From Patescibacteria group bacterium (lineage in GTDB: Bacteria > Patescibacteriota > Patescibacteriia > Patescibacteriales > UBA12465), in the NCBI GenBank assembly GCA_028692765.1, contig JAQUWT010000001.1, positions 15,695 to 79,694 on the forward strand: DNA of 64,000 nt, in the 5' to 3' direction. Both the position numbers and the translations under genes were made by a program. The notes beneath the pieces were generated by a model, which did no database searches, had not been told where the DNA came from, and saw nothing but the letters and a program-made list of their open reading frames with translations. This document shows, piece after piece, positions 5,386-22,878 of this stretch (position 1 is its first letter; the number at the start of each line of letters is the position of its first letter).

Positions 5386-5394
5386 GAAGATAAA

Positions 5395-5470: not shown

Positions 5471-5481
5471 GAAAAGAAAGA

Positions 5482-5509: not shown

Positions 5510-5521
5510 TGGGTTCGTAAC

Positions 5522-6883: not shown

Positions 6884-6903
6884 AATTTAAAGGAGGTAAA
6901 AAA

Positions 6904-8103
6904 ATGATAGCATTTATAGTTCCTATAGTTATCGTGGCCTTAGCAATCGGATTGATTGTTTCGCCAACTTTTCGCCAGGGAGTGGTCACAGTAGTCACTG
7001 ATGTAGTAACAATTGTTTTCGGTGTTACCAGGCAGTATGCCTTAATAGCCGGAGTAACAATTGCCGTGATGTTTTTCTGGATGTTTTTAGCCCTTATGAT
7101 TGGTTCCCCGATATTTTCGGGCTTAGTCTTTATAGCAGCAATTGCATTTTTCTTTGTCGTATGGCTGCCATTAGGGGCTGTTCTGAAAATTTTCGGTGTC
7201 AATAACGCCGTAGTTCCCGCATCAGTAAGGTCTTTTTTTGCCTGGATGGCCTTCGTTGGTTTCATGGCAATGATGACGCCCGATGTCTTTACCTTAAAGA
7301 CAACGTTAATTGCTTCTTTGGTCGCCATATTTATGGCGATGCTAACTTCCAAGTTTAATCTGCTTGAAAAGGTAGTCCTGCCACTCGTTGTCATTATGTG
7401 TTTGATTGGCGCTTGGAAATTAATTGCCCCAGACAGTTTCAGGGCGGTTGATCGTCACCGTTTAGCAATCGGCTCTTTATTCACCACTGCTAACGATCGT
7501 GGCTCCTTAAGAAAGGAGACCCGCGCCGCTTCTACCTTTGGCAAGCTTATTAAAGACGTGCCAGTTGTCTACATGGCTAATATGAATGGAGAAGAAATCA
7601 GTCAATTAACTGAAATTCAGGTTTCTTTGCCAAAAGGAACAATTGTCCTGCTATGCGACCAAAAAAAAGAAGTTAGTATTTTCCAGGGGCAATCATTTAT
7701 TGAGGTGAGACTCCCTAATAGCAATGGTTCTTTCGTTAATGGCCAGCGTTATTGGATTGAGTCTAATCTATTGGAAATTGGCACAATGGCCAGTTTAACT
7801 CCCGCCGAAACATCACGCGAGGAAAGACGGGTTGTCCGCGATACTGTTATATCTGTATCTTTCGGTCCCGGCACTCATCAGCTTCAGTTGAAGCCCGGCC
7901 AAATAGTAAGACTGATGACCACCCCATCAAAAGATGGGTGCGGCCTGCTTTCTATGTCTTCGCCAACCTATGCCTATCAGTTTAAATTTGATGGGCACAA
8001 TTGGGAGGCTGACGGGCCGGCTGTCCAATATCCGTACATGAGGTATCCCACCTGCTTGCTTCGCTCGCAGAGCGGGGATATCTTAACTATAAAAGTGCTG
8101 TAA
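6904..8103 (+). CDS. Hypothetical integral membrane protein (N-terminal ~180 aa polytopic, C-terminal ~200 aa soluble domain)
   Basis: Perfect SD AGGAGG 7 nt upstream. Multiple hydrophobic helices (IAFIVPIVIVALAIGLIV, IAGVTIAVMFFWMFLALMIGSPIFSGLVFIAAIAFFFVVWLPL, and others). Confidence 0.55.
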   Translation: MIAFIVPIVIVALAIGLIVSPTFRQGVVTVVTDVVTIVFGVTRQYALIAGVTIAVMFFWMFLALMIGSPIFSGLVFIAAIAFFFVVWLPLGAVLKIFGVNNAVVPASVRSFFAWMAFVGFMAMMTPDVFTLKTTLIASLVAIFMAMLTSKFNLLEKVVLPLVVIMCLIGAWKLIAPDSFRAVDRHRLAIGSLFTTANDRGSLRKETRAASTFGKLIKDVPVVYMANMNGEEISQLTEIQVSLPKGTIVLLCDQKKEVSIFQGQSFIEVRLPNSNGSFVNGQRYWIESNLLEIGTMASLTPAETSREERRVVRDTVISVSFGPGTHQLQLKPGQIVRLMTTPSKDGCGLLSMSSPTYAYQFKFDGHNWEADGPAVQYPYMRYPTCLLRSQSGDILTIKVL

Positions 8104-8194
8104 AAACAGCGCTAAATCTATAGAGGTAACCATCACAGGTTGCCTCTTTTTTCTTTTTTGGGAAAATGTTATAATTAAATAAGAATTTATCTAT

Positions 8195-8560
8195 ATGAAA
8201 AAATTTATAATAGCTATTTCATTTTCTGTTTTTCTGTCGTTTAGTATTTTTTTTCCCGCTCTTGCCGGAACTTCCGCTTGCCCAAGCGGTGGCGTTTGCA
8301 TAGACAATCCTTTAGCCGCTGGCGGTATCGATTCTCCTCAAACTTTAATCGGTCGGGTTATTAATAGTATTCTGGGCGTGGTCGGTTCTTTAGCTTTAGT
8401 GATGTTTGTTTATGGCGGTTTATTATGGATGACTTCCGGCGGCAGCGCCGAACAGGTGAAAAAGGGCCGGGATATCCTTATTTGGGCGGCTATCGGCCTG
8501 GTAATCATCTTTTCCGCCTACGGTTTGGTACGTTTCGTGATTCAGGGTGTCGGCGCCTAA
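8195..8560 (+). CDS. TrbC/VirB2-like type IV secretion system pilin family small membrane protein
   Basis: Signal peptide (AGTSAC lipobox-like), then two TM segments bracketing GGLLWMTSGGSAEQVKKGRDIL. This pattern matches the T4SS pilin family common in CPR and Gram-positive bacteria. Confidence 0.55.
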   Translation: MKKFIIAISFSVFLSFSIFFPALAGTSACPSGGVCIDNPLAAGGIDSPQTLIGRVINSILGVVGSLALVMFVYGGLLWMTSGGSAEQVKKGRDILIWAAIGLVIIFSAYGLVRFVIQGVGA

Positions 8561-8591
8561 GTTATTTCATTTTTTAACAGATATTTCTTAA

Positions 8592-8626
8592 ACCGCGCGG
8601 CGCTTCAGCGATTAGCGCGGTTTTGT
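8592..8626 (+). terminator. Rho-independent terminator
   Basis: GC-rich hairpin accgcgcggcgcttcagcgattagcgcggt followed by tttt. Confidence 0.6.
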
Positions 8627-8654
8627 TTGACAATTACTGAAAATTTTATATAAT
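8627..8654 (+). promoter_or_regulatory. Consensus sigma70 promoter (TTGACA-16 nt-TATAAT) driving tRNA-Tyr
   Basis: Exact consensus hexamers at 8627-8632 and 8649-8654, about 35 nt upstream of the tRNA 5' end. Confidence 0.7.
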
Positions 8655-8689
8655 GGAAACAGCCTGGATTCAGGCGCTTTGTTTTAAAA

Positions 8690-8772
8690 GGGTCGGTACC
8701 GAAGCGGTCAAACGGGACAGACTGTAAATCTGTTGGCTCGCGCCTTCGCTGGTTCGAATCCAGCCCGGCCCA
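8690..8772 (+). tRNA. tRNA-Tyr (anticodon GTA), class II long variable arm, CCA not encoded
   Basis: Acceptor GGGTCGG/CCGGCCC, anticodon stem ACAGA/TCTGT with loop CTGTAAA, long variable arm, T-arm GCTGGTTCGAATCCAGC. Confidence 0.8.
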
Positions 8773-8780
8773 CTTGATTA

Positions 8781-8808
8781 AAAACTCCTTTTTGGAGTTT
8801 TTATTTTT
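8781..8808 (+). terminator. Rho-independent terminator after tRNA-Tyr
   Basis: aaaactcc-tttt-ggagtttt followed by a T-run. Confidence 0.7.
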
Positions 8809-8940
8809 CTCTTTTTCTGCTATAATCTTCTTATATGCCTTTAATCGACCCTGATAAAATCGGTTGGAGTTTGACCAAGATTTTTGCCGTGGAACTTTTT
8901 TCGCTGGCCATTATTTTATCCTTGGTCTTTATTTTATAAT

Positions 8941-9822
8941 ATGCCGGAATTACCCGAAGTGGAAACCGTGCGCCGGGATTTGCAAAAATATATTGTCGGC
9001 GCCAGTTTCCAGAGTGTAAAAATTATCGATTTTAAGAATGTCGCTCCCGGGGCGGCTTTTTTGGCTAAGTTTTTGCCCGGCAAGAAAGTGGTGGCGGTCA
9101 GGCGCCGGGGCAAGCTGCTTATTTTGGATTTGGCGGGTACGGACGAATATCTGCTCCTGCATCTGAAGATGACCGGCCAGCTTATCTTTATCGGCGGCAA
9201 TAAAAAGATGGCCGGCGGGCACAGTTTGTCGGATGCTTCCTTTGCGGCGGCGGTCGGCGGGGAATTGCCGAATAAATTTACCCGCGCTTATTTTGAATTT
9301 GATAACGGCGGCCGCCTGTTTTTCAATGATTTGCGTAAATTCGGTTACATAAAATTAGTTGACGGAAAGTCTTTAGATAAGATTCTGGCGGATAATTACG
9401 GACCGGAGCCCTTAGATAAAGATTTGGATTTTCATTATTTGCAGGCGATGGTTGCCAAGAGACAGGCGCCGATTAAGGCGGTGATTCTCAATCAGAAGCT
9501 TATCGCCGGCCTAGGCAATATCTACGCCGATGAATCTCTATTTATCGCCGGCATTAAGCCCAACCGGTCGGCTAGCAGTCTAAAATCAGCGGAAATAGAG
9601 AAGCTGCAAGCGGCGATGAGAGATATCATCAAGCGGGCGATTAAAGCTAGAGGCACGACTTTTCGCAATTTTGTTGATGGACAAGGGAAGAAAGGCAATT
9701 TTGTGGCGCAATTGCAGGTCTATCAGCGCCAGGGCCAGGCCTGTCCGCAATGCGGCCGTAATTTACAGAAGATGAAAGTAGCCGGCCGTGGTACCCATTA
9801 TTGCCAATATTGTCAAAAATAA
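8941..9822 (+). CDS. mutM: Formamidopyrimidine-DNA glycosylase (Fpg/MutM)
   Basis: N-terminal MPELPEVETVRRDL (catalytic P2/E3), H2TH region, and a C-terminal zinc finger CPQCG..THYCQYCQ. The ORF-track start at 8884 is an upstream alternative-start extension. Confidence 0.9.
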   Translation: MPELPEVETVRRDLQKYIVGASFQSVKIIDFKNVAPGAAFLAKFLPGKKVVAVRRRGKLLILDLAGTDEYLLLHLKMTGQLIFIGGNKKMAGGHSLSDASFAAAVGGELPNKFTRAYFEFDNGGRLFFNDLRKFGYIKLVDGKSLDKILADNYGPEPLDKDLDFHYLQAMVAKRQAPIKAVILNQKLIAGLGNIYADESLFIAGIKPNRSASSLKSAEIEKLQAAMRDIIKRAIKARGTTFRNFVDGQGKKGNFVAQLQVYQRQGQACPQCGRNLQKMKVAGRGTHYCQYCQK

Positions 9823-9967
9823 GGATTTTTACTCTATTTATAGCCAATCATTTGACTTTTATCCTGTTTTTATCTATTGTATTAGGGTAATTAATTTCTA
9901 AGCGTGAACGGCTGACCCGCGTGTTCAAGATTTTCAAGAATCGCGCTCCGCTCGTTTTTTCCTTACT

Positions 9968-10123
9968 ATGTCCCAGGACAACATGATTAAACTTGAATGC
10001 ACCGAGTGCAAGACCGTCAATTATTTTTCCCGCAAGAACAAGAAGACCTTGAAGGAAAGATTGGAAATGATGAAGTATTGCGATACCTGCAAAAAGCACA
10101 CTCTGCACAAGGAAACAAAATAA
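9968..10123 (+). CDS. rpmG: 50S ribosomal protein L33 (51 aa); absent from the ORF track, presumably because of its short length
   Basis: Translation [51 protein letters not shown] shows the L33 CxxC...CxxC zinc ribbon and the KHTLHKE signature. Confidence 0.85.
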
Positions 10124-10135
10124 ATTTTTTCCGGC

Positions 10136-10200
10136 CGCTTTTTGCGGCTCGGTTTTTATAAACTTGGTTTTTATTCCGGCCGCTTCGGCGGCCGCCCCAT
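10136..10200 (+). repeat. Two tandem GC-rich stem-loops sharing the core ttccggccgct (terminator/attenuator-like)
   Basis: ccggccgc-ttttt-gcggctcgg followed by tttttat, then ccggccgc-ttcg-gcggccgc immediately before the next start codon. Confidence 0.5.
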
Positions 10201-10206
10201 GCAATT

Positions 10207-11385
10207 ATGACTAAAAGCCTGACTAAGCCTTTCCTGCTAATCCTTTTGGGATTGGTGCTGGTGGGTTGCTATTTCGTTTTTCGCCCCTTTTTAACGGAAA
10301 TTCTGGTGGCCGCTATTTTGGCTTCCATTTTTTATACCCCATATCTTAAATTGACCAAATTTTTAAAAGGGCGCCAAAATCTGGCCGCCCTTTTAATGTG
10401 TCTTTTTTTGGTGATGCTGATTATCATTCCGACGGTGCGCCTGGTTATCTATGCCGGCCAGCAGTCGGTGACCGCTTATGCGCAGGCAGTTAACTTCTTC
10501 AATAGCCACAGTATTAACGGCGTGATTCAGCCCAGTGCCTTGCCGGAAAAGCTGTTTGGCACTATTAATCTTGCCCAGTATTATGACAACCAGACTTTCA
10601 AGAATCTATTCTTAGATATTTTAAAGCAATCAAGCAATTGGTTGTTATCGGGCGCAACGATGCTGGTAAAAGGCACGACTAATTTTATTGTTTCCTTGTT
10701 CGTGATTATCATTACCATGTTCTTCTTTTTTGTCGACGGCAAGAAGATGTTGGAGCGCTTGATGTATCTTTCTCCTCTGCCCAATGTCTATGACCGGGAA
10801 ATTTTTCAAAAGTTTAGGACTGTTAGCTACACCACCATTTTATCTACCTTCGTGACCGCTTCGGCGCAGGGCCTGGTCGGAGCCATCGGTTTCGCTATTG
10901 TCGGCTTTCCCGCTTTCTTGGCCGGCGTTATTGTCGCTCTCTTGTCGCTTCTGCCTTATCTCGGTTCCATGATTTTCTATGTGCCGGTCGGCCTGTACTA
11001 TCTTTTGGTAGGCAAGATTTGGCAGGGTATCTTTATTCTCCTCTGGGGTGCGATTGTCATCGGCAATATCGACAATATTATCCGCGCCTATATGATAAAA
11101 GGCAAGGCGCAGGTGAATCCGATTTTTGTGGTCTTTTCCATTCTGGGCGGCATCGTGCTCTTCGGTTTCTGGGGCGTCGTCCTCGGTCCGCTGATTATTG
11201 CTATTGCCGTCACCATTTTCCATATCTATGAGTTGGAATTCTGTGATTCGCTTGACGGCGGCTGCAATGCCGAGACCAGAGAGGTAAAAATTGCTGAAAA
11301 GAAGGTTAGGGAAGAGCGGGAGGAAGAAGCAGAAAAAGAGAAAAAAAGACATAAGGAGACTTTGAAAAAATTGGGACGAAGATAA
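10207..11385 (+). CDS. AI-2E family transporter (PerM/UPF0118-like permease) with a Lys/Glu-rich C-terminal tail
   Basis: About 8 TM helices with an arrangement typical of AI-2E/PerM permeases. C-terminal tail KKVREEREEEAEKEKKRHK. Confidence 0.6.
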   Translation: MTKSLTKPFLLILLGLVLVGCYFVFRPFLTEILVAAILASIFYTPYLKLTKFLKGRQNLAALLMCLFLVMLIIIPTVRLVIYAGQQSVTAYAQAVNFFNSHSINGVIQPSALPEKLFGTINLAQYYDNQTFKNLFLDILKQSSNWLLSGATMLVKGTTNFIVSLFVIIITMFFFFVDGKKMLERLMYLSPLPNVYDREIFQKFRTVSYTTILSTFVTASAQGLVGAIGFAIVGFPAFLAGVIVALLSLLPYLGSMIFYVPVGLYYLLVGKIWQGIFILLWGAIVIGNIDNIIRAYMIKGKAQVNPIFVVFSILGGIVLFGFWGVVLGPLIIAIAVTIFHIYELEFCDSLDGGCNAETREVKIAEKKVREEREEEAEKEKKRHKETLKKLGRR

Positions 11386-11399
11386 TTAAGATTAATAAT

Positions 11400-11930
11400 A
11401 TGCTGGGAGAAAAAACTAAAAAGAATTTAGAAACTGCTTTTGCCGGTGAATCGATGGCGCGCAATAAGTATGATTATTTCGCCTCCGTTGCCCGCAAGGC
11501 CGGTTATGTCCAGATTGCTAATATTTTTACTGAAAGCGCTTTAAACGAAAAAGAGCACGCCAAGCTCTGGGCGAAGCAATTGGAATTAATTAGCGAAGAT
11601 ACCCTGAAGAATCTGGCCGAAGCGGTTAAGGGCGAAACTTATGAATATTCGGAAATGTATCAGCAGATGGCGGCCGATGCCGCCGAAGAGGGGCATCATG
11701 AATTAGCGGCTTTATTCCGCAATGTCGCCAAAGCGGAACAGGCGCATGCCGCCCGTTATCAGAAATTGCATGATAATTTGGAGCAGGGAGAAGTGTTTAA
11801 GAAAAAGGAAGTGAAGCGGTGGAAATGTAATAATTGCGGCTATATCCATGAAGGCACGGAAGCGCCGGAGAAGTGTCCCTCTTGCCAGCATCCGCAAGCG
11901 CATTTTGAAATCTTTGTAGAAACTTATTAA
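11400..11930 (+). CDS. rbr: Rubrerythrin
   Basis: Ferritin-like diiron domain (E..EH pairs) plus a C-terminal rubredoxin-like CNNCGY...CPSC. Confidence 0.9.
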   Translation: MLGEKTKKNLETAFAGESMARNKYDYFASVARKAGYVQIANIFTESALNEKEHAKLWAKQLELISEDTLKNLAEAVKGETYEYSEMYQQMAADAAEEGHHELAALFRNVAKAEQAHAARYQKLHDNLEQGEVFKKKEVKRWKCNNCGYIHEGTEAPEKCPSCQHPQAHFEIFVETY

Positions 11931-11940
11931 TTTTAACTAT

Positions 11941-12081
11941 ATGAGTGATAGAGTGGATAAAACTTATTTTTGCCGGACTTGCGGCAATGAGGTCAAGTTC
12001 GTTAAAGACGGCGGCGGCCAGTTGATTTGTTGCGGCCACCCGATGGAAATTAGGAAGCCGGGCTTTGACGGGGAAGAATAG
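11941..12081 (+). CDS. Desulforedoxin-type small iron protein (46 aa); absent from the ORF track
   Basis: Translation MSDRVDKTYFCRTCGNEVKFVKDGGGQLICCGHPMEIRKPGFDGEE carries the desulforedoxin signature CxxCGN...CCG. It sits directly downstream of rubrerythrin. Confidence 0.7.
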   Translation: MSDRVDKTYFCRTCGNEVKFVKDGGGQLICCGHPMEIRKPGFDGEE

Positions 12082-12104
12082 GCTTTTGTTTGATAGATGA
12101 TAAT

Positions 12105-12130
12105 AAAACCGCCAAACCGGCGGTTTTATT
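12105..12130 (+). terminator. Rho-independent terminator
   Basis: accgcc-aaacc-ggcggt followed by tttatt. Confidence 0.7.
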
Positions 12131-12283
12131 GGTTCTTTGGCGAAGGGATATTTGTAAAAATCAATTTTCTGTGTATAATAAACCGCATACTGAAAGAGTG
12201 CTTGTCAATTAGATATAAAGATAGTAAGATATTAAAAGAAATTTTTTATTTTTATCAAAAGATTGCGGATTTTAGTTAAAATT

Positions 12284-12354
12284 GCGGGATTGGTGTAGTG
12301 GTAACATGCGACTCTCCAAAAGTTGAGACGGGGGTTCGATTCCCTCATCCCGTG
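12284..12354 (+). tRNA. tRNA-Trp (anticodon CCA), CCA not encoded
   Basis: Acceptor GCGGGAT/ATCCCGT, anticodon stem CGACT/AGTTG with loop CTCCAAA, T-arm GGGGGTTCGATTCCCTC. Preceded by a promoter-like TTGTAA-16-TATAAT near 12150-12185. Confidence 0.8.
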
Positions 12355-12357
12355 CGT
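12343..12357 (+). repeat. attL-like copy of a 15-nt direct repeat (cctcatcccgtgcgt) covering the last 12 nt of tRNA-Trp plus 3 nt
   Basis: Identical 15-mer found again at 20389-20403. Confidence 0.7.
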
Positions 12358-12542
12358 GGACATTTCTGTGTAAAATGACCCGAAAACCGAGCATTTTTGA
12401 GTTCTAAACCCACAAAGGTGCTAGTCACCTTGGTGGGAATCGGAACAGCACAGAAAGCAATATTCTAGCAAAAGCACCTCGAAGGGGGTGTTTTTGCTAT
12501 GGGAACGGAGATTAAAATATGGTATTATAATATTGTAATATT

Positions 12543-13325
12543 ATGCCAAATTTTAATGATTTAAATTTAGAAAACTGGAAAGATTCTGATATCTGGACAG
12601 ATAGCCTTTGGATTATTCAGGAACGTGATAAATCGGGGAAACACGATGGTTTTTATCATGGAAATTTTGTGCCACAGATTCCTCGTCAACTTATAAAAAG
12701 ATATACCAAAGAGGGGGATGTCGTTTTTGATCCATTTTTAGGAAGTGGCACAACTGCTTATGAATGCGAAACTCTAAAAAGACATTTTATTGGGATTGAA
12801 ATACAGCCTAGTTTAGTAAGGCACGTTCAAACAAAGCTGGACAGTAAGAAAAATTTTTTTGAGATCTTGGCGGCTGATAGTACTGAGGAAAAAACATTTA
12901 TTAAGGTTAGTGAATCGCTAAAAAAGCATCGTCGCACTAAAGTCCAATTGGCAATACTGCACCCGCCATATGCCAACATAATTAAATTTAGCGATAATAA
13001 GAAAGATTTATCAAATGCCAAGGATTTAAGGCAGTTTCTTGACGAATTTTCAAGTGTAGTTAAAAATACTTTAACCATCCTAGAAAAGGGAAGGTATATG
13101 GCTATTGTTATGGGTGATAAATATGAACAGGGTAAGTGGATTCCTTTAGGATTTTATTGTATGAATGAAGCTTATAAGCTTGGATTAACTTTAAAGAGTG
13201 TTATAGTTAAGAATATGGAAGGCAACAGAGCAAAGCAGAATAAAGAGGGTATTTGGCGTTATAGAGCCCTGGCAAGTGATTATTATATTTTTAAACACGA
13301 ATATATATTAATTTTCAAATATTAG
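12543..13325 (+). CDS. DNA methyltransferase (N6-adenine/N4-cytosine amino-MTase), permuted motif order
   Basis: HGNFVPQIPRQLIKRYTKEGDVVFDPFLGSGTT matches the beta-class HPAxFP...DPFxGSGTT SAM-binding block, but here it is N-terminal. The PPY-type motif (LAILHPPYANI) lies downstream. AT-rich. Confidence 0.7.
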   Translation: MPNFNDLNLENWKDSDIWTDSLWIIQERDKSGKHDGFYHGNFVPQIPRQLIKRYTKEGDVVFDPFLGSGTTAYECETLKRHFIGIEIQPSLVRHVQTKLDSKKNFFEILAADSTEEKTFIKVSESLKKHRRTKVQLAILHPPYANIIKFSDNKKDLSNAKDLRQFLDEFSSVVKNTLTILEKGRYMAIVMGDKYEQGKWIPLGFYCMNEAYKLGLTLKSVIVKNMEGNRAKQNKEGIWRYRALASDYYIFKHEYILIFKY

Positions 13326-13326
13326 T

Positions 13327-14007
13327 ATGACAAATAATGAATTATTTCTAGAACTTGCGAAACCAAACAAAGACGGAGTAAGTCGTTGGGTTCCAGTTTC
13401 AGAATTTATTGGTAAATATAAAAAACTTCAGCTCGGAAATGGTGGAAGTTGGTGTCGAGCTAGCTCGAGTTTGGCGAAGAAATATATCGTTGAATTTGAT
13501 AAAAGCAAAACGGCCGGAAATTCAATCGATAGAGTTCGCTTAATTGGTTTTAATAAAAAAAAGATATTAAACCAAAATATTAGAAAGGATATAAAAGATT
13601 TTTATAAAGTGCAAAATTGTGTAATGCTTGGGGTTAATGGTAGCTCTGAGAATACAAAAATTGAAATTGATCATAAAGACGGTAGAAAAGAAGATCATAG
13701 ACTTTCAAATTTATCAGAACAACAAATCACTGATTTTCAGCCACTTTCAAAAGCGGCAAATGATATTAAAAGACAGATTTGTAAAAGATGTAAGGAAACC
13801 AATAAGCGTTGGAATGCTAAAAACATCAAGGGGAATCCATTTGATTTTTACGCAGGAGACGAAAATTATTCTGAAGAATTAGGATGCAAAGGTTGTTACC
13901 AGTATGATCCGGTGGAGTATAGGAAAGTTGTGGTTAGAAAGGTTGGCGAACTATCAGCCAGGGAAGCAGTTGATAAAGTTTTTAAAAAATTATATCCAGA
14001 AGGATAA
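13327..14007 (+). CDS. HNH-family endonuclease, putative cognate restriction enzyme
   Basis: EIDHKDGRKEDHRLSNL...ICKRCKETNKRWN matches the HNH pattern D-H...N...N-L...C-x2-C...N. One-nt gap after the MTase stop, so translationally coupled. Confidence 0.5.
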   Translation: MTNNELFLELAKPNKDGVSRWVPVSEFIGKYKKLQLGNGGSWCRASSSLAKKYIVEFDKSKTAGNSIDRVRLIGFNKKKILNQNIRKDIKDFYKVQNCVMLGVNGSSENTKIEIDHKDGRKEDHRLSNLSEQQITDFQPLSKAANDIKRQICKRCKETNKRWNAKNIKGNPFDFYAGDENYSEELGCKGCYQYDPVEYRKVVVRKVGELSAREAVDKVFKKLYPEG

Positions 14008-14016
14008 TGATAAAGT

Positions 14017-15699
14017 ATGAATAACTCTCCTCAAAAATCTGCAATAAATTCTCAAATTAACGATTTGATTAGTTTGAAATATTTAGGTTTAAATAAAGGA
14101 TTGCAAAGAGGTGCGGCATTTAACGAATTATCTGCCTCAATAATATGCGAGTCTGATATTCAGTCTGAAGACATTGTGGATGGTGATGATGACAATGGTC
14201 TCGATGTTGTTTTTATAAACTCTAATGACCAGGGAATTTTTATAAACATATTAAATTGTAAATCATCAGAAACTGAAAAATTTTCCGAGGTTGAGTTGGG
14301 TAAAATTAAAAATGGTTTATTTTATACATTTGAGGCTGATAAAAAAAAATATAAAAAACTAGAAAATCAAAACCTTTTAGCAAAAATAGAAGAAATAAGA
14401 GAAGACAAAGAAAATATCGTGGAGGTTAACTGTTTTTATTGTGCTTTTAGCGGTGATAATAATAAAGATAAAAAAATAAAAAGAGAAGTGGAGGAAATTC
14501 AAAATTATTTTAGCGAATATTTTAAAACAGTTTATCCAAATGCAAAATTTAATTTAAGTTTAATAAATGCAGAAGATTTATTCTACATAGATGCTCAGAG
14601 AAAACAGAGCCTTAGAAATGAAAAAATTTCTATACCGTATTATGGTGATAAAGTTATTTCAAATGAAGTAGAAACAGAAAAAATTGATGGAAGATTAGCA
14701 ACAGTAAGAGGAGAGGAAATTGCAAAGTTGGTTGAAAAATACGGAGAGTCTTTATTTGAAAAAAATGTTAGAGGTTGGATGAGCTTCAGAAAATATAATA
14801 AAGATATTTTATATTCCTGTTCCTCTGATAATGAATCGGAGCTTTTTTGGTTTTTAAATAATGGATTAACTATAGTATGTGATAAATGTGTTCCAGAGCC
14901 AGATAAGAAAATTTTAAAGTTAACAGCACCACAAATAATCAACGGACAACAAACCGCCAGAGTTTTAGAAAAAGCTTATAAGGATGGTATTTTAAAAGAA
15001 AATGTTAAAGTTTTATTAAAAATTTATGTAACTACTGCTCCTGATATAATAATTAAAGTTGCGAAAGCGACAAATAGCCAGCTTGTAGTCAAATCTCGCG
15101 ACTTAGTTTCTAATAATACTGAACAACTAGCTATTCAAAATGAATTTATAAGAAATAAATATGGTTATGAGAGACAGCGTGGTGAAAAAAAATCTAAGAC
15201 TGCTGACATAAAAGAAAATTTTAATAATTTTTTTGTAGCTCAATCAGTTCTATCTACTTTATTTGGGCAACCAAGCTTTGCAAAGAAAAAACAGGAGGAT
15301 AAGATTTTTGGAGAACCAAATTATTCCAAGATATTTAGAAATAATTCTGTGGATGAAATATTGACGGTTACTTTGTTGTGTAATTTCTGTTTAGGTGAAG
15401 GGCTTAAGCTGGAAAGAAAAAATATATCTGATCAAATAAAGTATTTTGCCTTTTTTCATATTGCCAGAATAATATGGTTTAATCTAAAAAATAAGGAAAA
15501 AATGAAAAATGATGAAATAATATCAATTATTCAAAATCATAAAAACAAGAAAAAATTAAATAATATATACACTAAAGCTTCTAATATATTATTAGGTGTA
15601 TATAAAAAATATAATAAGAAAGAAAAAATTATAAGTATTGGGCATTTGTTTTCTAGGTTGGAAGTTGATAAAGATATAAATAAATTATTATTTAAATGA
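14017..15699 (+). CDS. Large (560 aa) AIPR-like abortive-infection/defence protein
   Basis: Central IINGQQT motif, as I recall from AIPR proteins, which are often embedded in R-M operons; it is also distantly like the DGQQR motif of ParB/DUF262. K/N-rich, about 28% GC. Assignment is from memory only. Confidence 0.4.
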   Translation: MNNSPQKSAINSQINDLISLKYLGLNKGLQRGAAFNELSASIICESDIQSEDIVDGDDDNGLDVVFINSNDQGIFINILNCKSSETEKFSEVELGKIKNGLFYTFEADKKKYKKLENQNLLAKIEEIREDKENIVEVNCFYCAFSGDNNKDKKIKREVEEIQNYFSEYFKTVYPNAKFNLSLINAEDLFYIDAQRKQSLRNEKISIPYYGDKVISNEVETEKIDGRLATVRGEEIAKLVEKYGESLFEKNVRGWMSFRKYNKDILYSCSSDNESELFWFLNNGLTIVCDKCVPEPDKKILKLTAPQIINGQQTARVLEKAYKDGILKENVKVLLKIYVTTAPDIIIKVAKATNSQLVVKSRDLVSNNTEQLAIQNEFIRNKYGYERQRGEKKSKTADIKENFNNFFVAQSVLSTLFGQPSFAKKKQEDKIFGEPNYSKIFRNNSVDEILTVTLLCNFCLGEGLKLERKNISDQIKYFAFFHIARIIWFNLKNKEKMKNDEIISIIQNHKNKKKLNNIYTKASNILLGVYKKYNKKEKIISIGHLFSRLEVDKDINKLLFK

Positions 15700-16757
15700 A
15701 TTACATAGGAAGTAAATTATCATTATTGGAGTTTTTAGAGGAATCAATTAATAAAGTAGTTAAAAAAGACTGCAATGTTTTTTGTGATCTTTTTGCTGGA
15801 ACGGGGGCGGTCGGGTCATATTTTAAAAGAAAAGGATATAAAGTTATATCTAATGATATCCAATATTATAGCTATGTTTTAAATAGACACTATATTAAAA
15901 ATCATCAACCACTTGAATTTAAAAAATTATTTGATGTTGTTAATGGCTTAGAAAAATCATCCGTTTCTGATAGAAGTATTTTAGTCGTAGAGTATTTGAA
16001 TAATTTAAAAGGTCAAAAGGGATTTATTTTTAATAATTATTGTTTGGGTGGAACTAAAAATAAAGCAGAACAAAGAATGTATTTTTCTGATGAAAATGGG
16101 GCTAAATGTGATGCAATTAGAAAAAAAATAGAGGAATGGAATAGTGCTAGTTTAATTAATGGAAATGAATATTACTTTTTGTTAGCCAGTTTAGTTGAGT
16201 CAATAGATAAATATGCAAATACAGCTTCAGTTTATGGAGCATTTCTTAAGCAACTAAAGAAATCAGCTCAAAAATTAATGGTGCTTCAACCGGCGGAGTT
16301 AATTATTAATGAACAAGACCATGAGGTATACAATGAAGATATTAATTCTGTTATCGGAAAAATAAAGGGTGATATTCTTTACTTAGATCCGCCGTATAAT
16401 CAAAGGCAGTATGCAACCAACTATCATGTATTAGAGACTATAGCCAAATATGACAAGCCCAAAGTGCATGGCAAAACTGGGCTAAGAGATTATTCTAAAC
16501 AAAAATCCTTATATTGTTCAAGAAATCAAGTTAAAAAATCATTTAAAGATTTGATTGATAACGCGAAAGTTAAATATATATTTTTAAGCTATAATAACGA
16601 GGGGCTGATGAGCGCTGATGATATTAAAGAAATTATGGGCGCGCGCGGTAAGTATGGTGTTTTCACGAAAGAATATTCTAGATTTAAAGCTGACAAGAAT
16701 AGAGAATATAAGGCTGAAAAAACCGTTGAATATTTACATTATGTAGTATGCCGTTAA
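15696..16757 (+). CDS. Dam-like (MT-A70/D12 alpha-class) N6-adenine DNA methyltransferase
   Basis: MNYIGSKLSLL (Dam/MboI-type N-terminus), motif I DLFAGTGAV, motif IV LYLDPPY. ATGA overlap with the upstream gene. Confidence 0.85.
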   Translation: MNYIGSKLSLLEFLEESINKVVKKDCNVFCDLFAGTGAVGSYFKRKGYKVISNDIQYYSYVLNRHYIKNHQPLEFKKLFDVVNGLEKSSVSDRSILVVEYLNNLKGQKGFIFNNYCLGGTKNKAEQRMYFSDENGAKCDAIRKKIEEWNSASLINGNEYYFLLASLVESIDKYANTASVYGAFLKQLKKSAQKLMVLQPAELIINEQDHEVYNEDINSVIGKIKGDILYLDPPYNQRQYATNYHVLETIAKYDKPKVHGKTGLRDYSKQKSLYCSRNQVKKSFKDLIDNAKVKYIFLSYNNEGLMSADDIKEIMGARGKYGVFTKEYSRFKADKNREYKAEKTVEYLHYVVCR

Positions 16758-18469
16758 TAAATAAAATTTCAATAAAAAATTTTAAATGTTTTAGAAATAA
16801 AATTGATATTCCATTAAATCAAGGGAGTTATTTAATTGGTGCTAATAACGCAGGAAAAACAGCCGTACTTAATGCTATTAATTTCTTTTTTGATTCTTCT
16901 CTTTTTTTTGATGAGTCATTTTTAAACAGGACAAACTATTTGGCAAAAAAATCAGGATATAATAAGTCGGAAATTACTCTTAGTTTCGATTTAAGTTATA
17001 TATCTAATAGTTCACTTAAAAATAAGTTAGTAAAATTTTTTTCTTCCGAAATGGCAACAATTAAGAAGGTTATAATATTTTCTCCAGATTCTGGCAGTAT
17101 TAACTTGAGTTATGATATAAAGGGTAATAATTATACTTATGATGATTTAAATGAAAATGTTAAAAAAATGATTAGTAGTGTAAAGATTGTATATATACAC
17201 CCGCAAGAAGGTCGTGAATTGTTATTGAATGCTCAAAATAAACTACGTACGAGATTATTAGCAAATTGGGGGAGAAATGCTAAGCTTTCTCATAGTATCA
17301 AGGATCTGCAAGATAAATGGAGTGTTTTAAGAAAACAGGCCAGAGAATATCTTTCTGGATCTTTGTCAAATAGTCTACAAAATATGTGGCCAGGTGGATC
17401 TGCTTATATAGATTTACCAAAAGAAATTTCGGATATTGTGGCTATATCCGATATCACTTTTAAAGGTAATATTTCTTTGCCAGATATTAATTTAACAGCG
17501 CAAGGAACTGGCGCACAAACTACCATTTTATATTTAACTCATTATTTATTAGATAGCGATCGATCTTTACACAGAGGCGAATATCATCCAATTTGGCTAT
17601 TAGAGGAGCCGGAGTCATTTCTTCATGCTGATTTAATAGCAAAATTTGCATCTCAGCTAAATTCAGAATCTTGGATGAGCAATATACAGGTTGTGGTTTC
17701 TACGCATTCACCTATTTTACTTTCAGTAAGTAGAATGGGTAAGAATTTAGTTTCTTGGAGTTTGCTTGATAATTACGAACCACAGATATCAAAGAATGTT
17801 ATAGATTGGAGCCATGAAGAAATTTTTAATGTTGGCAAAAAAATGGGCGATCCAAATTTCTCAGTATATTTTTCCGTTTCACAAAATGGTCCTATTGTAT
17901 TTTTAGAAGACAAAAAAGATATTACAATAGATAGATTTAAAAAGGCCGGAATTTCCATTACTAGTGGGTTGGGCGGTGTTTCTGAGGTTGTTAGACATAT
18001 AAGTGTATTGATCTCAAGTCCTAGATTGTCGTCTAGCAAAATATACTATATAGTTGATGGCGATCGCGGCTTTAATAATTTTGTTAATTTTATTGATGGC
18101 GACCCCGTTAAGTCTATTGGGGGATTAAATAAGTTTCAATTAAAAGATTTAAATGATGTATATTTATTATCACTTCCAAAAAATAGAGCTATAGAAGAAA
18201 TGTTTGATGAGTATGAACCCTATTTGTTATCTTTAATTAATCAAATATGGGATCCGCATACCTGGAATTTTAGGCAAAAAATTCCTAGTGTTTTGTCAAC
18301 TATCTGCGCCTCTTCTAAGAAAAAAAATATAAATTCACTTGGCAGTGCTCAAAATGCTATAAAAAATTCTGATGATGTTAAATATATGTTTTGGAAAAAA
18401 GTTGAAAAAGAGAATTTAAGTTTTAGTAAAGTATTTATTTCTAATTTGGTAGCTATTCTAAATGATTAA
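16748..18469 (+). CDS. OLD/GajA-like nuclease: ABC-type ATPase fused to a C-terminal Toprim-like domain
   Basis: N-terminal ISIKNFKCF...GANNAGKT (Walker A), WLLEEPESFLHADL (Walker B/D-loop), STHSP (H-loop). C-terminal VFLEDKKD...YYIVDGDRGF fits the Toprim E...DxD pattern. Overlaps the MTase by 10 nt. Confidence 0.6.
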   Translation: MPLINKISIKNFKCFRNKIDIPLNQGSYLIGANNAGKTAVLNAINFFFDSSLFFDESFLNRTNYLAKKSGYNKSEITLSFDLSYISNSSLKNKLVKFFSSEMATIKKVIIFSPDSGSINLSYDIKGNNYTYDDLNENVKKMISSVKIVYIHPQEGRELLLNAQNKLRTRLLANWGRNAKLSHSIKDLQDKWSVLRKQAREYLSGSLSNSLQNMWPGGSAYIDLPKEISDIVAISDITFKGNISLPDINLTAQGTGAQTTILYLTHYLLDSDRSLHRGEYHPIWLLEEPESFLHADLIAKFASQLNSESWMSNIQVVVSTHSPILLSVSRMGKNLVSWSLLDNYEPQISKNVIDWSHEEIFNVGKKMGDPNFSVYFSVSQNGPIVFLEDKKDITIDRFKKAGISITSGLGGVSEVVRHISVLISSPRLSSSKIYYIVDGDRGFNNFVNFIDGDPVKSIGGLNKFQLKDLNDVYLLSLPKNRAIEEMFDEYEPYLLSLINQIWDPHTWNFRQKIPSVLSTICASSKKKNINSLGSAQNAIKNSDDVKYMFWKKVEKENLSFSKVFISNLVAILND

Positions 18470-18549
18470 TTTTATAGTTTAATATTCAGGTACAAAAATA
18501 TCAGTCCGCGCCTTCGGGCTGATATTTATTTTAACTTTATTATCTTTTT

Positions 18550-19098
18550 TTATTCCTCAAACACCAGGCTATCGATAATCGTCGGCATTGATGCCAAGGG
18601 AGCGGTAATCACGAATATATTGCTATCTTTGGAAAAAATGATGATTTGCGGGTCGGGAAAGTCTTCGCCATTGTTTGCGACTTCATGCGCAGAGATGCCG
18701 CTTTGCCCGGCAATGTCGATGTTTTCGTCTTTAAGATATCGACTGGATTTTAATTTTTTATTTTCTGTTTCCAGCCAAGATTCCGCATCGGGAAATTGTT
18801 GTTTGGCAAAAACTTGGATGCTTATACCCGGTCCACCTCCTTGAGAAAAGACAACGCCGTTATTTTCCAAGGAAATGACATCCAGATTGCCGGGGTAGGA
18901 TAATCTATATTTAAGAGGCCTATTAGTATAGGTTTTTAATTTTATTTCTCCCACGTTCTCCGCTTGGCTTTTTGTTTGATTATAGTAAGCAATTTGCCGG
19001 CATTTGCTTTGGATAAGGAGAATTGCGGTCATTAGAGCCAGTACGATGATGGCGCTGCCGGCAACGATTATTTTTTGATTGTAAGTATTTTTAATCAT
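18550..19098 (-). CDS. Hypothetical membrane-anchored protein (182 aa)
   Basis: N-terminal TM helix IIVAGSAIIVLALMTAILLI. No family recognised. Confidence 0.5.
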   Translation of the reverse strand: MIKNTYNQKIIVAGSAIIVLALMTAILLIQSKCRQIAYYNQTKSQAENVGEIKLKTYTNRPLKYRLSYPGNLDVISLENNGVVFSQGGGPGISIQVFAKQQFPDAESWLETENKKLKSSRYLKDENIDIAGQSGISAHEVANNGEDFPDPQIIIFSKDSNIFVITAPLASMPTIIDSLVFEE

Positions 19099-19343
19099 AT
19101 AAATTAAGATGCTTTTATATTATAGCATAATGGCATAACATTTGTTTAAAAAATAAATAGAATTAATTAACGATATATAATCGTATAAAGCGGCGGGGAA
19201 GCTCCAGAGATTTGCCGACAGGCAAATGTCGCGGCGGATGAGCCGATTAGTGTCCTAATTTTAGAGTAATTTTTTATATATTCTCAAACAGGATTAGAAT
19301 ATAAGCGCTTATTTTAGTATAATGATGATATAGAGCTACATTT

Positions 19344-20339
19344 ATGAAAATAAAAGACATCAATCAAGGCGTCAGAAAAGCGGCCGCCGAAACCGGCTTT
19401 AAAATCGGTAAGGAAATTTATCGGGGAACTTATTACACGGAAGGCAATTTGAGAAATATTATTTATGACGGTTTTTATAAAAACAAGCCGGCCGTATTGA
19501 AATTTTATGATGATCCCCGAATTACGGATGAAGCGGCCTCGCTGAAAGAGTTTTTAAAAAATAATAAAAGCGTAATTTTGACGGCGCCGAAACTATACAG
19601 AAGCAAAGTTCTTTCGGCTCATTCGGGGTGGATGATTGTCGAGAAAATACCCGACAGTTATCATAAATATGAAATTCCATTGGATAAGATTGAGCGGGAA
19701 GAATTTTTGAAAATATTTTTGGAATACAGAAAGAATTTTTCTCTTAAGCCGGGCAGGAAATTATTTTTAACCGAAAAGCTTTCGTCTGATAATTTTTATA
19801 TTTTTAGAATAAGCAGGTGGTTGGAATTGGCGCAGAATAAAGAGGCCGACAGGCTGATGAACGGCAAGCGCAATCTTCTCGATGAAGATTTTTTAAAGAT
19901 GCTTGCGCCGGCTTTATCGAAGATAAGAGAGGAATGCAAAAACATCAAGATGATTTGGTGCCACGGCCACTTCAAGCCGTCTGAAATTTTTACCGACCGG
20001 GCAAGGACTAAGTATTATTTGACCGATTTTGCGCACACCGCCATGTTTCCCGAAGGATATGAACTCGCCTTTATGATCTGGTCCGATTATTTAATGGCGG
20101 ATGATAAGTGGAAGATGCCGTATCGGCACTGGAAGAAGGGCCTTGATGCTTGGATTATGGATGTCGAAAAAATAGCCAAGGAATTGGGATTTAATAATTA
20201 TAAAAGGTTAATTAGAGTTAGCTTGATAGAGAGAGTCTTGGGGACGATATTGGCTGACATTACCGCCTCGGATAGGCTGGAGCAAGAAAAAGAAAGGGGA
20301 ATCAGCCTAATGACGAGGCTTTTAAAAGATTTATTGTAG
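19344..20339 (+). CDS. Phosphotransferase (APH/kinase-like fold) family protein, divergent catalytic loop
   Basis: HGHFKPSEIF aligns with the HGDxxxxN catalytic loop, and YLTDFAHT aligns with the DFG/DFE metal-binding motif. D to H and N to E substitutions suggest altered or lost kinase activity. Confidence 0.4.
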   Translation: MKIKDINQGVRKAAAETGFKIGKEIYRGTYYTEGNLRNIIYDGFYKNKPAVLKFYDDPRITDEAASLKEFLKNNKSVILTAPKLYRSKVLSAHSGWMIVEKIPDSYHKYEIPLDKIEREEFLKIFLEYRKNFSLKPGRKLFLTEKLSSDNFYIFRISRWLELAQNKEADRLMNGKRNLLDEDFLKMLAPALSKIREECKNIKMIWCHGHFKPSEIFTDRARTKYYLTDFAHTAMFPEGYELAFMIWSDYLMADDKWKMPYRHWKKGLDAWIMDVEKIAKELGFNNYKRLIRVSLIERVLGTILADITASDRLEQEKERGISLMTRLLKDLL

Positions 20340-20388
20340 CTGGGCGATTATAATATTATTTTATCATATAAATAATGAGGCGAAACTT

Positions 20389-20403
20389 CCTCATCCCGTG
20401 CGT
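20389..20403 (+). repeat. attR-like copy of the tRNA-Trp 3'-end direct repeat (cctcatcccgtgcgt)
   Basis: Exact 15/15 match to 12343-12357, or 16/17 with one flanking mismatch. Immediately followed by a terminator. Confidence 0.7.
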
Positions 20404-20410
20404 AATAAAA

Positions 20411-20433
20411 AACCAGATTTCTCTGGTTTTTTT
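20411..20433 (+). terminator. Rho-independent terminator
   Basis: aaccaga-tttc-tctggtt followed by ttttt. Confidence 0.7.
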
Positions 20434-20453
20434 GTGTTTAGCGATTCTTATCT

Positions 20454-21014
20454 TTACCTATTGCAAAATGCAAATCGTCTTAAGGTCTTCCTTTTTACAA
20501 ATGAGCCTCCGTTTCCAGAGGAAAAGATGCGACCCATTATAATTTCATTGAGCGCTAGGATAATATAATTGTATCCCGTCTTTGTTACCCTTTCTTCTAA
20601 AGTTTTGGCAGTATCTTCCGGTCTTATAAGTACCGGAATTTGAATAATGCCAGAACCGCGATTTAGTTTATTGACAAAGTGCATTGATATAGCGCTTTGA
20701 TCAATTTCTCCGCGTTTATAAGCGGCAATAATTTCTTTATAAATTTTTGATCCTTGCAAATTTTTATCATTAATCCATGGGAACGGTCCGTGACATATAT
20801 TGATAATCCTTCCTTCTTCCGATTCCGCGATTGGCTTTGGCCAATCTGCATAGATAATATAGTCTGGCTGAAATTTTGTAATTATATTTTGATACTCTTC
20901 AGTATTATTTGGTTCCATAAAATATATGAAAGGAATTTTTAAAGATTGAGCTCTTTGAAAAATTTCGCCGTTATGGTAGTCAAAGACGACCCCTACAACT
21001 TTGGCTTTAATCAT
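20454..21014 (-). CDS. Formyltransferase domain protein (PurN / methionyl-tRNA formyltransferase N-domain-like)
   Basis: INICHGPFPW...SMHFVNKLNRGSGIIQIPVLIRPEDTAKTLEERV aligns with the formyl_trans_N core (N..H..D catalytic region). Confidence 0.6.
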   Translation of the reverse strand: MIKAKVVGVVFDYHNGEIFQRAQSLKIPFIYFMEPNNTEEYQNIITKFQPDYIIYADWPKPIAESEEGRIINICHGPFPWINDKNLQGSKIYKEIIAAYKRGEIDQSAISMHFVNKLNRGSGIIQIPVLIRPEDTAKTLEERVTKTGYNYIILALNEIIMGRIFSSGNGGSFVKRKTLRRFAFCNR

Positions 21015-21257
21015 TGCCGGGTTCGTTCTTGACCTTTCGATAATTTCTTGAAACCAATATCCGCTCTTGATTTTTTTCCGGATTCAAAAATAAGAATTTT
21101 TTTCATTTTGCTTTGGTTTAATTGATTTAAGGTACGAGAATTTTTGGGAAAAATTAATTTTATAGCATAAAGCTTTTTATACTTTTTGTAAAGACTGCTC
21201 GTTTTACCTTTTTATCTTTTTGGCCTTTTTTCGGTTTTTAGGGTAGAATTAAGATGT

Positions 21258-21761
21258 ATGCCAAAAACCATTATCGTTAACGATTTAATGCAAAAGGGCT
21301 ATAGGTACCAGCTGACGGAGCCGATGGGCCGTAATTTTGATTCCGAATTCAAACCGGAGCTTAGCCCCAAGGAAATGCTGGCTCTCGGCGTTTTCGGAGG
21401 CAGATACATGACCGATTGCCGGCAGGAATTCCCGGCCGACTGGTATCGGGGGGCGAAGCTGTGCGCTCGCTTCCACGACCCGAAGTTAAATTTCTTCGGC
21501 GTTAATGCCAGCCAGCCTTTATCGGTCTGGCGCTTTAAGGGCTGGATTCACCCCGATGATCCCAGGGGCTGGTTCCAATGGTATTGCCGCTATTATCTCG
21601 GCCGGCGGCATGAGGATGATAAAAGGCAGATTAGGCGCTGGCGGGCTTTCCGCCGCCATTTACTGGCGGTACAGAAAAATTGCCGGCGGGGTGATTTTAA
21701 GTGCCGACCCAAACAGAGGCAAGCGCTTTTGCACTGGGCCTATGACAGCCGGAAAGCCTGA
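21258..21761 (+). CDS. Conserved hypothetical protein (167 aa), Arg/Trp-rich, conspicuously GC-rich relative to neighbours
   Basis: GWFQWYCRYYLGRRHEDDKRQIRRW block. No family confidently recalled. Confidence 0.45.
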   Translation: MPKTIIVNDLMQKGYRYQLTEPMGRNFDSEFKPELSPKEMLALGVFGGRYMTDCRQEFPADWYRGAKLCARFHDPKLNFFGVNASQPLSVWRFKGWIHPDDPRGWFQWYCRYYLGRRHEDDKRQIRRWRAFRRHLLAVQKNCRRGDFKCRPKQRQALLHWAYDSRKA

Positions 21762-21825
21762 AGAGTATTTATTTCAGATAATAAAAAACTATCCTTTTGG
21801 GGATAGTTTTTTGATTTGATGTCTT

Positions 21826-22878
21826 TTATATTTCCGGCGCGTGTGCCAAGCCATGCGCTTGGCTTTCGTGATAGCCGGCACTGCTGATTTCTATAAAGTC
21901 GGCTTTGCCTTTTAAAGATTCGATATCTTTGGCGCCAATATAAGTCATGCCTGAGGCGAGCCCGCCCAGCAGTTTGTTGACTATGGGAACAATCGACCCT
22001 TTGTATGGAATTTTAGTCATTTCACCTTCAACGTGAACCACTTCATCTATCTTCGAGCCGTCAAGCGTCATTTTTTTCACGGTTGCCAATAGGCTCGCCA
22101 TGCCTCGATATTCTTTGTATTGTCTATCATCGATAGTGATGATTTCACCGGGGCTTTCAGCGGTGCCGGAAAAGAAAGAGCCGGACATAATACAGTCAGC
22201 GCCGGCGCCGATAGCTTTGACGATATCTCCAGAGTATTTTAAGCCCCCGTCGGCGCACAAAGGCACTCGCCCCTGGCTGGCTTCATAGACATCCATAATA
22301 GCAGTTAGTTGTGGGACGCCGGCACCGGCCATAATCCGCGTTGTGCACATGGAACCGGGGCCGATACCGATTTTAATTGCATCCGCTTTTTTACTGATAA
22401 AATACTCAGCCGCATCTTTCGTGGCGACATTGCCGACCATGACATCTATTTGCGGGTACTTGGATTTGATGTAATCCAGCGTTTTGCCGGCTCTTTTGGA
22501 ATGCCCGTGAGCGACATCAAGAACAATTATATCGACGCCGGCAGTAATTAAAGCCGGCAGGCGCTCTTCGTAATCCTTAATGCCTAAAGCGGCGGCGCTT
22601 AATAATTTTTGTTTTTTCACTTTAGCCACTTCTTGCGCCTGTTGTTCAATGCTTAAAAAACGATGAAGAATGCCTAAACCTCCTAAGCGGCCGAGGGCAA
22701 TCGCCATTTCGCTTTCGCACACCGTATCCATGTTAGCGGCCAGAATGGGAATATCGATTTTATGATTTTTGGTGACTTGAGTTTGAAAATTAACATCTCG
22801 CCGAGATATAATTTTATTATATTTAGGCACAATGAGCACATCGTCAAAAGAATAGCCGCGGCCAATGATTCTTGCCAT
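21826..22878 (-). CDS. IMP dehydrogenase/GMP reductase family protein (no CBS insert)
   Basis: [11 protein letters not shown] catalytic cysteine loop, TIM barrel, 350 aa. Confidence 0.85.

Follow-up and report, generated by a model that had tools for sequence, protein, structure and literature searches.

Five tightly packed genes at 12543–18469 of a 64,000-nt stretch of DNA from a Patescibacteria group bacterium (assembly GCA_028692765.1, contig JAQUWT010000001.1, positions 15,695 to 79,694 of the forward strand; hereafter the window) encode, in order, a permuted DNA methyltransferase (MTase; M1), an HNH restriction endonuclease (R), an AIPR/AbiU-type protein (AIPR), a second MTase (M2) and an OLD-family nuclease (OLD). 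We consider it likely that this locus is a composite hotspot, in which a mobile M1-R-AIPR-M2 restriction–modification (R-M) cassette is followed by a stand-alone OLD nuclease that was acquired independently. The locus as a whole is a composite of known kinds and no new class of defence. An initial annotation of the same DNA had read the five genes as one integrated system with the second MTase functionally fused to the OLD nuclease, and neither of these claims is supported by the comparative data set out below.

The relatives of OLD keep different company from that seen in the window. A genome scan recovered 29 orthologous OLD loci with 37–68% identity from many phyla, and tblastn within 8 kb of these loci found M1, R, AIPR or M2 at none of them (0/29). 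The neighbourhood statistics proposed in the initial annotation, which asked how often an MTase stands upstream of homologues of the 16748–18469 protein, thus gave M2 within 8 kb in 0 of 29. All-against-all clustering of the neighbours of the 29 loci likewise returned no conserved partner family. For these reasons the OLD family behaves as a free-standing defence-island gene. What does lie beside it varies: HsdS and HsdM (Type I) precede the orthologue in a subgroup of four loci, an open reading frame (ORF) with an HNH motif is directly upstream in one (L002; loci and contigs other than the window carry L numbers), and in the closest homologue (57% identity) the genes before it encode a MutH-like endonuclease, a C5 MTase and Vsr, and the one after it AbiEii. 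Several orthologues are split into two ORFs (L003:8001–9715, L013:2857–4578, L026:4970–6898), and these are probably pseudogenes or assembly frameshifts.

The same boundary is seen in the DNA of the window. When the window is aligned with L084 and L173, two contigs with near-identical cassettes, homology stops in the last M2 codons, at the ATG of OLD. Since the break falls at the 3′ end of M2, the 10-nt overlap between M2 and OLD would be the scar of a module swap and not an ancient fusion. Beyond this point L084 and L173 carry PDC-S06/AAA_13, a single-gene defence ATPase (PADLOC 4.5e-154), L090 carries a 609-aa AriA/Old-like ATPase and L085 an AAA_14/DUF4143 protein, while elsewhere the position is taken by small ORFs in L171 and L172, by a recombinase in L088 and by housekeeping genes in L094. 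Judged from these contents, single-gene defence ATPases are swapped in and out at the position after M2.

The first four genes recur together in other genomes. We scanned metagenomes with an alignment of the AIPR protein and then ran tblastn with the window proteins, covering AIPR relatives of ∼30% identity or more. Of the 22 contigs that could be evaluated for M2, 17 have it (69–76% identical) directly downstream of AIPR, and in one more a different R-slot protein, here called R′, stands between the two; M1 (50–79% identical) lies upstream in 17 of the 20 evaluable for it. The four-gene core was found in more than 20 other contigs, which is beyond chance, and most of those seen so far belong to Patescibacteria and to other bacteria that are uncultured. 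Some copies are very close to that of the window: M1 is 98% identical in L084 and 90% in L171, and R shares 99.6% identity with its counterpart in L084 and 91% with that in L173. Homologues of M2 number more than 8000, with the best 120 at 72–94% identity.

The composition of the cassette changes from copy to copy. L173 reads M1-ICEA-AIPR-M2-AAA_13, where ICEA is the family of the window's R, and L084 reads M1-ICEA-M2, without AIPR, followed by the AAA_13 protein. Further instances are L085–87, with M1, a 222-aa protein, a helix-turn-helix (HTH) gene, AIPR and M2 followed by an AAA_14/DUF4143 protein; L171 and L172, with M1-R′-HTH-AIPR-M2; and L088–89, with AIPR, R′ (220 aa) and M2, which occupy another genomic setting beside serine recombinases and in L088 lack M1. 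L100 has M1, a 277-aa protein and AIPR without M2; L095 has the same order, and its ∼480 nt downstream of AIPR are too short to judge M2. In L099 AIPR stands alone between a phosphatase-like gene and valyl-tRNA synthetase with no nearby MTase, and the distant AIPR proteins L119–L169 have neither M1 nor M2 nearby. The reduced variants L084, L088, L100 and L099 indicate that each accessory part is dispensable. They are evidence, too, that a nuclease can occur with either MTase (R′ with M2 in L088, M1 with the 277-aa nuclease in L100) and that AIPR would need no dedicated MTase, since L084 lacks AIPR and L099 has AIPR alone. In addition, some cassette copies adjoin serine recombinases or a terminase-like, Rep-like or Ser/Thr kinase gene (L088:8062–14452; L171:2316–5289; L172:5075–6442), a hint that phage- or plasmid-like elements also carry the cassette.

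The nuclease position of the cassette is variable. The R slot holds an ICEA-type enzyme in the window, L084 and L173, and in other copies 220- or 222-aa HNH proteins that are distant ICEA relatives (26–29% identity, E ∼1e-8 to 1e-9); the 222-aa protein matches the PADLOC REase_II model at 1.9e-35, and an HTH gene usually lies alongside. A third type consists of homologous 277–299-aa proteins (L104:5081–5980, L100:1883–2716, L095:5123–5959) with no Pfam or PADLOC match. These carry a GxDFF...FDxK (D...DxK) motif, from which they are probably uncharacterised PD-(D/E)xK restriction enzymes. ACGT is almost absent from the cassettes with the 299-aa type, with one occurrence observed and 26 expected.

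AIPR is also exchanged as a whole gene. L084 and L173 have M1, ICEA and M2 in common as well as a 99%-identical AAA_13 gene, and the sole difference between them is the AIPR ORF. The sequences are identical up to an ATGAAT start, after which either AIPR or M2 follows, such that two ATGAAT sites bound the AIPR gene. AIPR alleles have moreover been shuffled relative to the MTases, as indicated by discordant identities to the window: 41% for AIPR and 87% for M2 in L172, and 68% and 80%, respectively, in L171.

Profile searches assign the cassette enzymes to familiar families. M1 matches Pfam N6_N4_Mtase (2e-27) and the PADLOC MTase_II model (1.2e-96). Its aa 13–95 align to model positions 134–219, and motif I (DPFLGSGTT, ∼aa 63–71) precedes motif IV (HPPY, aa 140–143). 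This order of motifs, together with the alignment of its N-terminal part to the C-terminal portion of the Pfam profile, makes M1 permuted relative to the beta-class model. HPPY is an unusual form of motif IV, replacing D/N/SPPY, and is kept in a 50%-identical homologue (L100:736–1902) that has an N-terminal extension of ∼125 aa. From its sequence, M1 may modify either N6 of adenine or N4 of cytosine. M2 matches Pfam MethyltransfD12 (2.6e-51) and PADLOC MTase_II (2e-116), with motif I DLFAGTGAVG and motif IV DPPY, and on these grounds is an alpha-class (D12) N6-adenine DNA methyltransferase.

R matches Pfam ICEA (PF05315) at 7.8e-119 (395 bits), aa 3–223 aligning to positions 2–218 of the 218 in the model, in addition to a weak HNH_3 match (0.002). 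PF05315 is the family that includes NlaIII and IceA1, which are HNH restriction endonucleases of Type II (PMC5714182), and iceA1 is 52% identical to NlaIII (PMC2749054). By this full-length match R is predicted to be an ordinary member of the ICEA/NlaIII family, a Type II restriction endonuclease of the HNH (His-Me finger) kind. An MTase lies beside it in either arrangement of the cassette, with M1 1 nt upstream of R and M2 directly adjoining R in L084. Sequence searches of the PDB with M2, the ICEA protein and AIPR gave nothing useful.

AIPR matches Pfam AIPR (PF10592) at 8.7e-32 (111 bits, cut-off 25) and PADLOC AbiU at 9.1e-49 over aa 48–538. Across 29 aligned sequences, the N-terminal part keeps D52 and D63 in all 29, N/Q80 in 28 and K82 in 26, and one family member weakly matches Pfam Mrr_cat. 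The D...(Q/N)xK variant occurs in Mrr and MspJI. By fold and motif the N-terminal domain is a Mrr/FokI-like PD-(D/E)xK nuclease, with the AIPR domain C-terminal to it, from which we infer a predicted DNA nuclease effector domain joined to the AIPR domain. In this the subfamily differs from the published description of AIPR proteins, which gives them an N-terminal HEPN domain (PMC3506569). The location within an R-M operon, on the other hand, is that of the family: the association of AIPR with R-M operons has been on record since 2008 and 2012 (PMC2292703, PMC3506569), and AIPR has been found in a Prevotella Type II R-M system (PMC5608340). In the searchable literature on AbiU/AIPR with methyltransferases the conserved order M1-R-AIPR-M2 is not described, and no mechanism for the link between AIPR and R-M was found there.

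The product of the last gene matches Pfam AAA_15 (7.7e-22) and AAA_21, and PADLOC Old at 6e-28 over its N-terminal half only; a sequence search of the PDB gave GajA and OLD matches that cover only the ATPase part, and there was no Pfam Toprim or Toprim_OLD match. In the family alignment the Walker A (GANNAGKT) and Walker B (LLEEPESFLH) motifs are invariant, as are E387 and D388 and D437xD439xG441 in the C-terminal part. An AlphaFold2 model of the protein (pLDDT 84.5) aligned over nearly its full length in Foldseek with GajA (8.7e-20), the retron Eco8 OLD protein and Thermus scotoductus OLD (6p74), at ∼14–17% sequence identity to the solved OLD/GajA proteins. Taking the alignment and the model together, the 573-aa protein is a predicted stand-alone (class-1-like) OLD-family ABC-ATPase with a Toprim nuclease domain. 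These results agree with the initial annotation's family calls for all five products: the permuted MTase is borne out by its motif order and by the permuted match to the Pfam model, the HNH nuclease by the ICEA and HNH_3 matches, the AIPR-like protein by the AIPR and AbiU models and the OLD/GajA-like ATPase-Toprim protein by AAA_15, Old, the invariant acidic residues and Foldseek. The proposed hidden Markov model searches place the 560-aa and 573-aa proteins in defence families (AIPR/AbiU and Old, respectively). Its description of M2 as Dam-like holds at the level of MethyltransfD12 and not at that of the Dam subfamily, of which M2 is not a member, its 30.7 bits falling well short of the TIGR00571 cut-off (114.85).

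The closest architectural analogue of the two-MTase cassette is the DpnII-type R-M system, which has the same parts: one restriction endonuclease, a D12 alpha-class MTase and a ∼260-aa N6_N4-family MTase. L084, in which M1-R-M2 are contiguous, has the parts list of such a DpnII-like two-MTase system. DpnA is the accessory second MTase of the DpnII system, and the second MTase here would fit an accessory role like that of DpnA, since one MTase can suffice (L088, with M2 only). The cassette differs from the DpnII type in that its endonuclease is HNH/ICEA, its gene order is another and M1 is permuted. The NlaIII and HpyI (iceA1-hpyIM) Type IIP systems, which recognise CATG, are alike in having a full-length ICEA nuclease beside adenine-type MTases, and the NlaIII/IceA1 nuclease measures ∼230 aa, close to the length of R. 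M.NlaIII and M.HpyI are alpha-class (D12) enzymes like M2. Those systems have one MTase, whereas here there are two, with an AIPR gene between R and M2.

OLD, for its part, resembles class 1 OLD (T. scotoductus 6p74) and GajA in its N-terminal ABC ATPase, its C-terminal Toprim-like domain and its acidic residues. Several systems that use such ATPases were considered as homes for the gene and set aside. Unlike in Gabija, no UvrD-like helicase GajB adjoins it. For PARIS, the AriA model matches the ATPase part only (1.2e-23), an AriB-like neighbour is missing, and one protein carries both the ATPase and the Toprim-like domain. No retron lies beside the gene, as would be expected for a retron effector. 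For Septu, the match to NCBIfam PtuA reaches 28.9 bits where the cut-off is 500, and the sole HNH protein is the ICEA enzyme two genes away. MAD3 of MADS (49.9 bits, cut-off 420) and MzaE of MZA (36.6 bits, cut-off 1050) fall similarly short. The initial annotation was right that the partners required by Gabija, PARIS and Septu are missing, as no GajB, AriB or PtuB-like neighbour is present at the locus.

Word counts offer a view of what the cassette may recognise. Inside the HNH-type cassettes no 4-mer palindrome is more depleted than CATG, with 26 occurrences observed and 58.6 expected (observed/expected 0.44), which lends weak support to CATG as the site; R would most likely cut CATG or a related short site. 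GATC presents a different picture. In the host part of the window (1–12360 and 21100–64000) it occurs 26 times against 223 expected (observed/expected 0.12, z = −17), while the island shows no such depletion (21 observed vs 27 expected), nor do the flanks of the near-identical cassettes L084 and L085. Because those flanks lack it, the depletion was not taken as support for a DpnII-like, GATC-specific cassette. In the host it suggests that another system of the genome or lineage has long exerted a GATC-specific restriction pressure. A tblastn search of plasmids with the ICEA protein gave one partial match, on an unannotated Priestia megaplasmid, whose neighbours are a C5 MTase and a 351-aa ORF unrelated to M2; this match did not settle the class of the cognate MTase.

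The genes and the features around them are collected in Table 1. The five same-strand ORFs are found with exactly the gaps and overlaps that had been listed for them: 1 nt between M1 and R, 9 nt between R and AIPR, a 4-nt overlap between AIPR and M2 and the 10-nt overlap between M2 and OLD. The proposal that they form a single operon is plausible given this tight packing, the lack of a strong internal terminator and the hairpin after OLD; among the five genes no plus-strand terminator-like site is as strong as this hairpin, which would putatively end the transcription unit. The possible −10 element lies ∼12 nt upstream of the M1 ATG, so that the leader would be very short if it is used, and a scan with a two-hexamer promoter consensus did not call it. 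A promoter-like TTGATA-16-TATATT (10 of 12 matches) at 16555–16582, inside M2 and ∼165 nt upstream of the OLD start, may give OLD transcription of its own, in a scan where promoter-like sites are no more frequent than chance expectation.

Table 1. Genes, flanking signals and aligned junctions of the five-gene locus (window coordinates unless a contig is named)
Feature	Coordinates	Strand	Remarks
tRNA-Trp (CCA)	12284–12355	+	left edge of low-GC defence hotspot; ARAGORN
tattataat, possible −10 element	12523–12531	+	read from sequence
M1	12543–13325	+	260 aa; ATG start
R	13327–14007	+	226 aa; ATG start
AIPR/AbiU-type protein	14017–15699	+	560 aa; ATG start
M2	15696–16757	+	353 aa; ATG start
OLD-family ATPase-Toprim nuclease	16748–18469	+	573 aa; ATG start
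Terminator-like hairpin	18496–18527	+	13-bp stem and T-rich tail; directly after last stop
AIPR presence/absence junction, aligned	L084:5815–5915; L173:965–1065; window 13960–14060 and 15650–15740		
M2/OLD junction, aligned	window 16690–16830; L084:6870–7030; L173:3700–3860		

The guanine plus cytosine (GC) content of the island is 26–38% against 43–50% in its flanks, and falls from ∼45% to 26–38% immediately past tRNA-Trp. The island lies in a syntenic variable hotspot that runs from rubrerythrin (followed by tRNA-Trp in the window) to a gene of the GMP reductase/IMPDH family (window 11400–22878, L085:2779–14500). The cargo of the hotspot differs between the window and L085, and L084 has the same upstream boundary. 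In L084 and L085, which come from related Patescibacteria, the order at the site is fpg, L33, AI-2E transporter, rubrerythrin and then the island, with the far-side GMP reductase in L085 only. A search for att-like direct repeats at the edges of the window's island found none, nor does that island contain an integrase. Downstream of OLD are a minus-strand PsbP_2-like ORF, a 331-aa ORF and a formyl transferase, none with a PADLOC match.

Under the composite reading the locus would work in two layers. The first (12543–16757) would be a horizontally mobile Type II R-M system with two MTases and AIPR nested inside it: M1 and/or M2 would methylate the DNA of the host, R would cut incoming DNA that is unmodified, and AIPR would serve as a nuclease effector in the second line, co-inherited with the R-M genes without being essential to them. 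The second layer (16748–18469) would be OLD, recombined into the variable slot after M2 and carried on the same transcript, where it may act alone as an ATP-dependent nuclease, like single-gene OLD systems. The data show the gene structure, the family and fold assignments, the conservation of the cassette and the module swaps. The recognition site, the way M1 and M2 share the work, the trigger of AIPR and anti-phage activity are parts of this scheme that we infer.

How closely AIPR is bound to the genes around it can be read in other ways. In one, M1-R-AIPR-M2 is a discrete mobile four-component unit with AIPR functionally wired to the Type II R-M system, either as a guard or as a second restriction activity against which M2 protects; this is possible, and we hold it only tentatively. 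A more specific proposal divides the locus into two back-to-back R-M pairs plus OLD, where M1 would protect against the ICEA nuclease and AIPR, as a FokI/Mrr-like cleavage domain joined to a DNA-recognising AIPR domain, would be a Type IIS-like restriction enzyme with M2 as its cognate MTase. The contigs make it unlikely, since AIPR is found without M2 in L100, L103 and L115 and without any nearby MTase in L099, the AIPR proteins of L119–L169 have no M1 or M2 nearby, and M2 is retained without AIPR in L084. In L088, where R′ is accompanied by M2 and not by M1, M2 can be what protects an R-slot nuclease, and the discordant identities in L172 and L171 show AIPR and M2 to have incongruent histories.

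In a guard model AIPR would be wired to the R-M system as a backup or addiction module, set off by loss of the cassette or by a block of restriction or modification such as phage anti-restriction proteins could impose. This would explain why AIPR lies inside the operon, and the position of AIPR between R and M2 is indeed kept across cassettes with non-homologous R genes. AIPR alleles are 38–80% identical as compared with 70–92% for the flanking MTases, which suggests arms-race pressure on AIPR, and a coupling of immunity and suicide modules has been hypothesised (PMC3506569). However, AIPR is alone in L099 and cleanly absent from the near-identical L084, and co-location of independent modules fits these two observations equally; we judge a guard to be quite unlikely. 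Finally, one integrated five-gene system, with HNH and OLD-like ATPase cooperating as a split Septu-like pair and M2 tied to OLD, has in its favour the single strand, the gaps of ≤9 nt or short overlaps, the single hairpin after the last gene and the recurrence of various ATPase genes after M2 (window, L084, L085, L090), yet it is very improbable and already largely refuted by the comparative data, as none of the 29 ATPase orthologue loci has the other four genes or a conserved partner, the post-M2 ATPases are unrelated to one another (PDC-S06/AAA_13, AAA_14/DUF4143, AriA-like) and give way elsewhere to non-ATPase or housekeeping genes, the breakpoint falls exactly at the M2 3′ end, and R is a full-length ICEA/NlaIII enzyme that is not PtuB-like, with PtuA far below its cut-off.

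The composite reading itself has to accommodate several observations that weigh against it. The counts above are of contigs, uncorrected for relatedness, and several contigs are near-duplicates. The overlapping stop and start of AIPR and M2, together with their adjacency in 17 of 22 contigs, could mean a functional pairing beyond co-inheritance. Expression of OLD is probably coupled to the cassette here, given the 10-nt overlap with M2 and the lack of an internal terminator, and OLD and the cassette could still interact functionally in this particular genome. With regard to the site cut by R, the host genome does not avoid CATG (observed/expected 1.08), and the ICEA-like gene on the Priestia megaplasmid lies near a C5 and not a D12 MTase, from which the family need not always be CATG- and N6-methyladenine-specific.

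The M1-R-AIPR-M2 cassette is thus a variant on the known theme of AIPR within R-M operons, and the recurrent order is itself what is added here. The locus provides an example from the candidate phyla radiation of how a defence hotspot is assembled, with whole-gene modules exchanged precisely at start and stop codons. A Mrr/FokI-like nuclease as the effector domain of AIPR is a concrete hypothesis that follows from the fold and motif data. Non-homologous endonucleases share one cassette frame, and the cassette offers a tractable model for the coupling of AIPR to R-M. If this reading is true, the natural variants with and without AIPR (L173 and L084) would make the association between AIPR and R-M directly testable.

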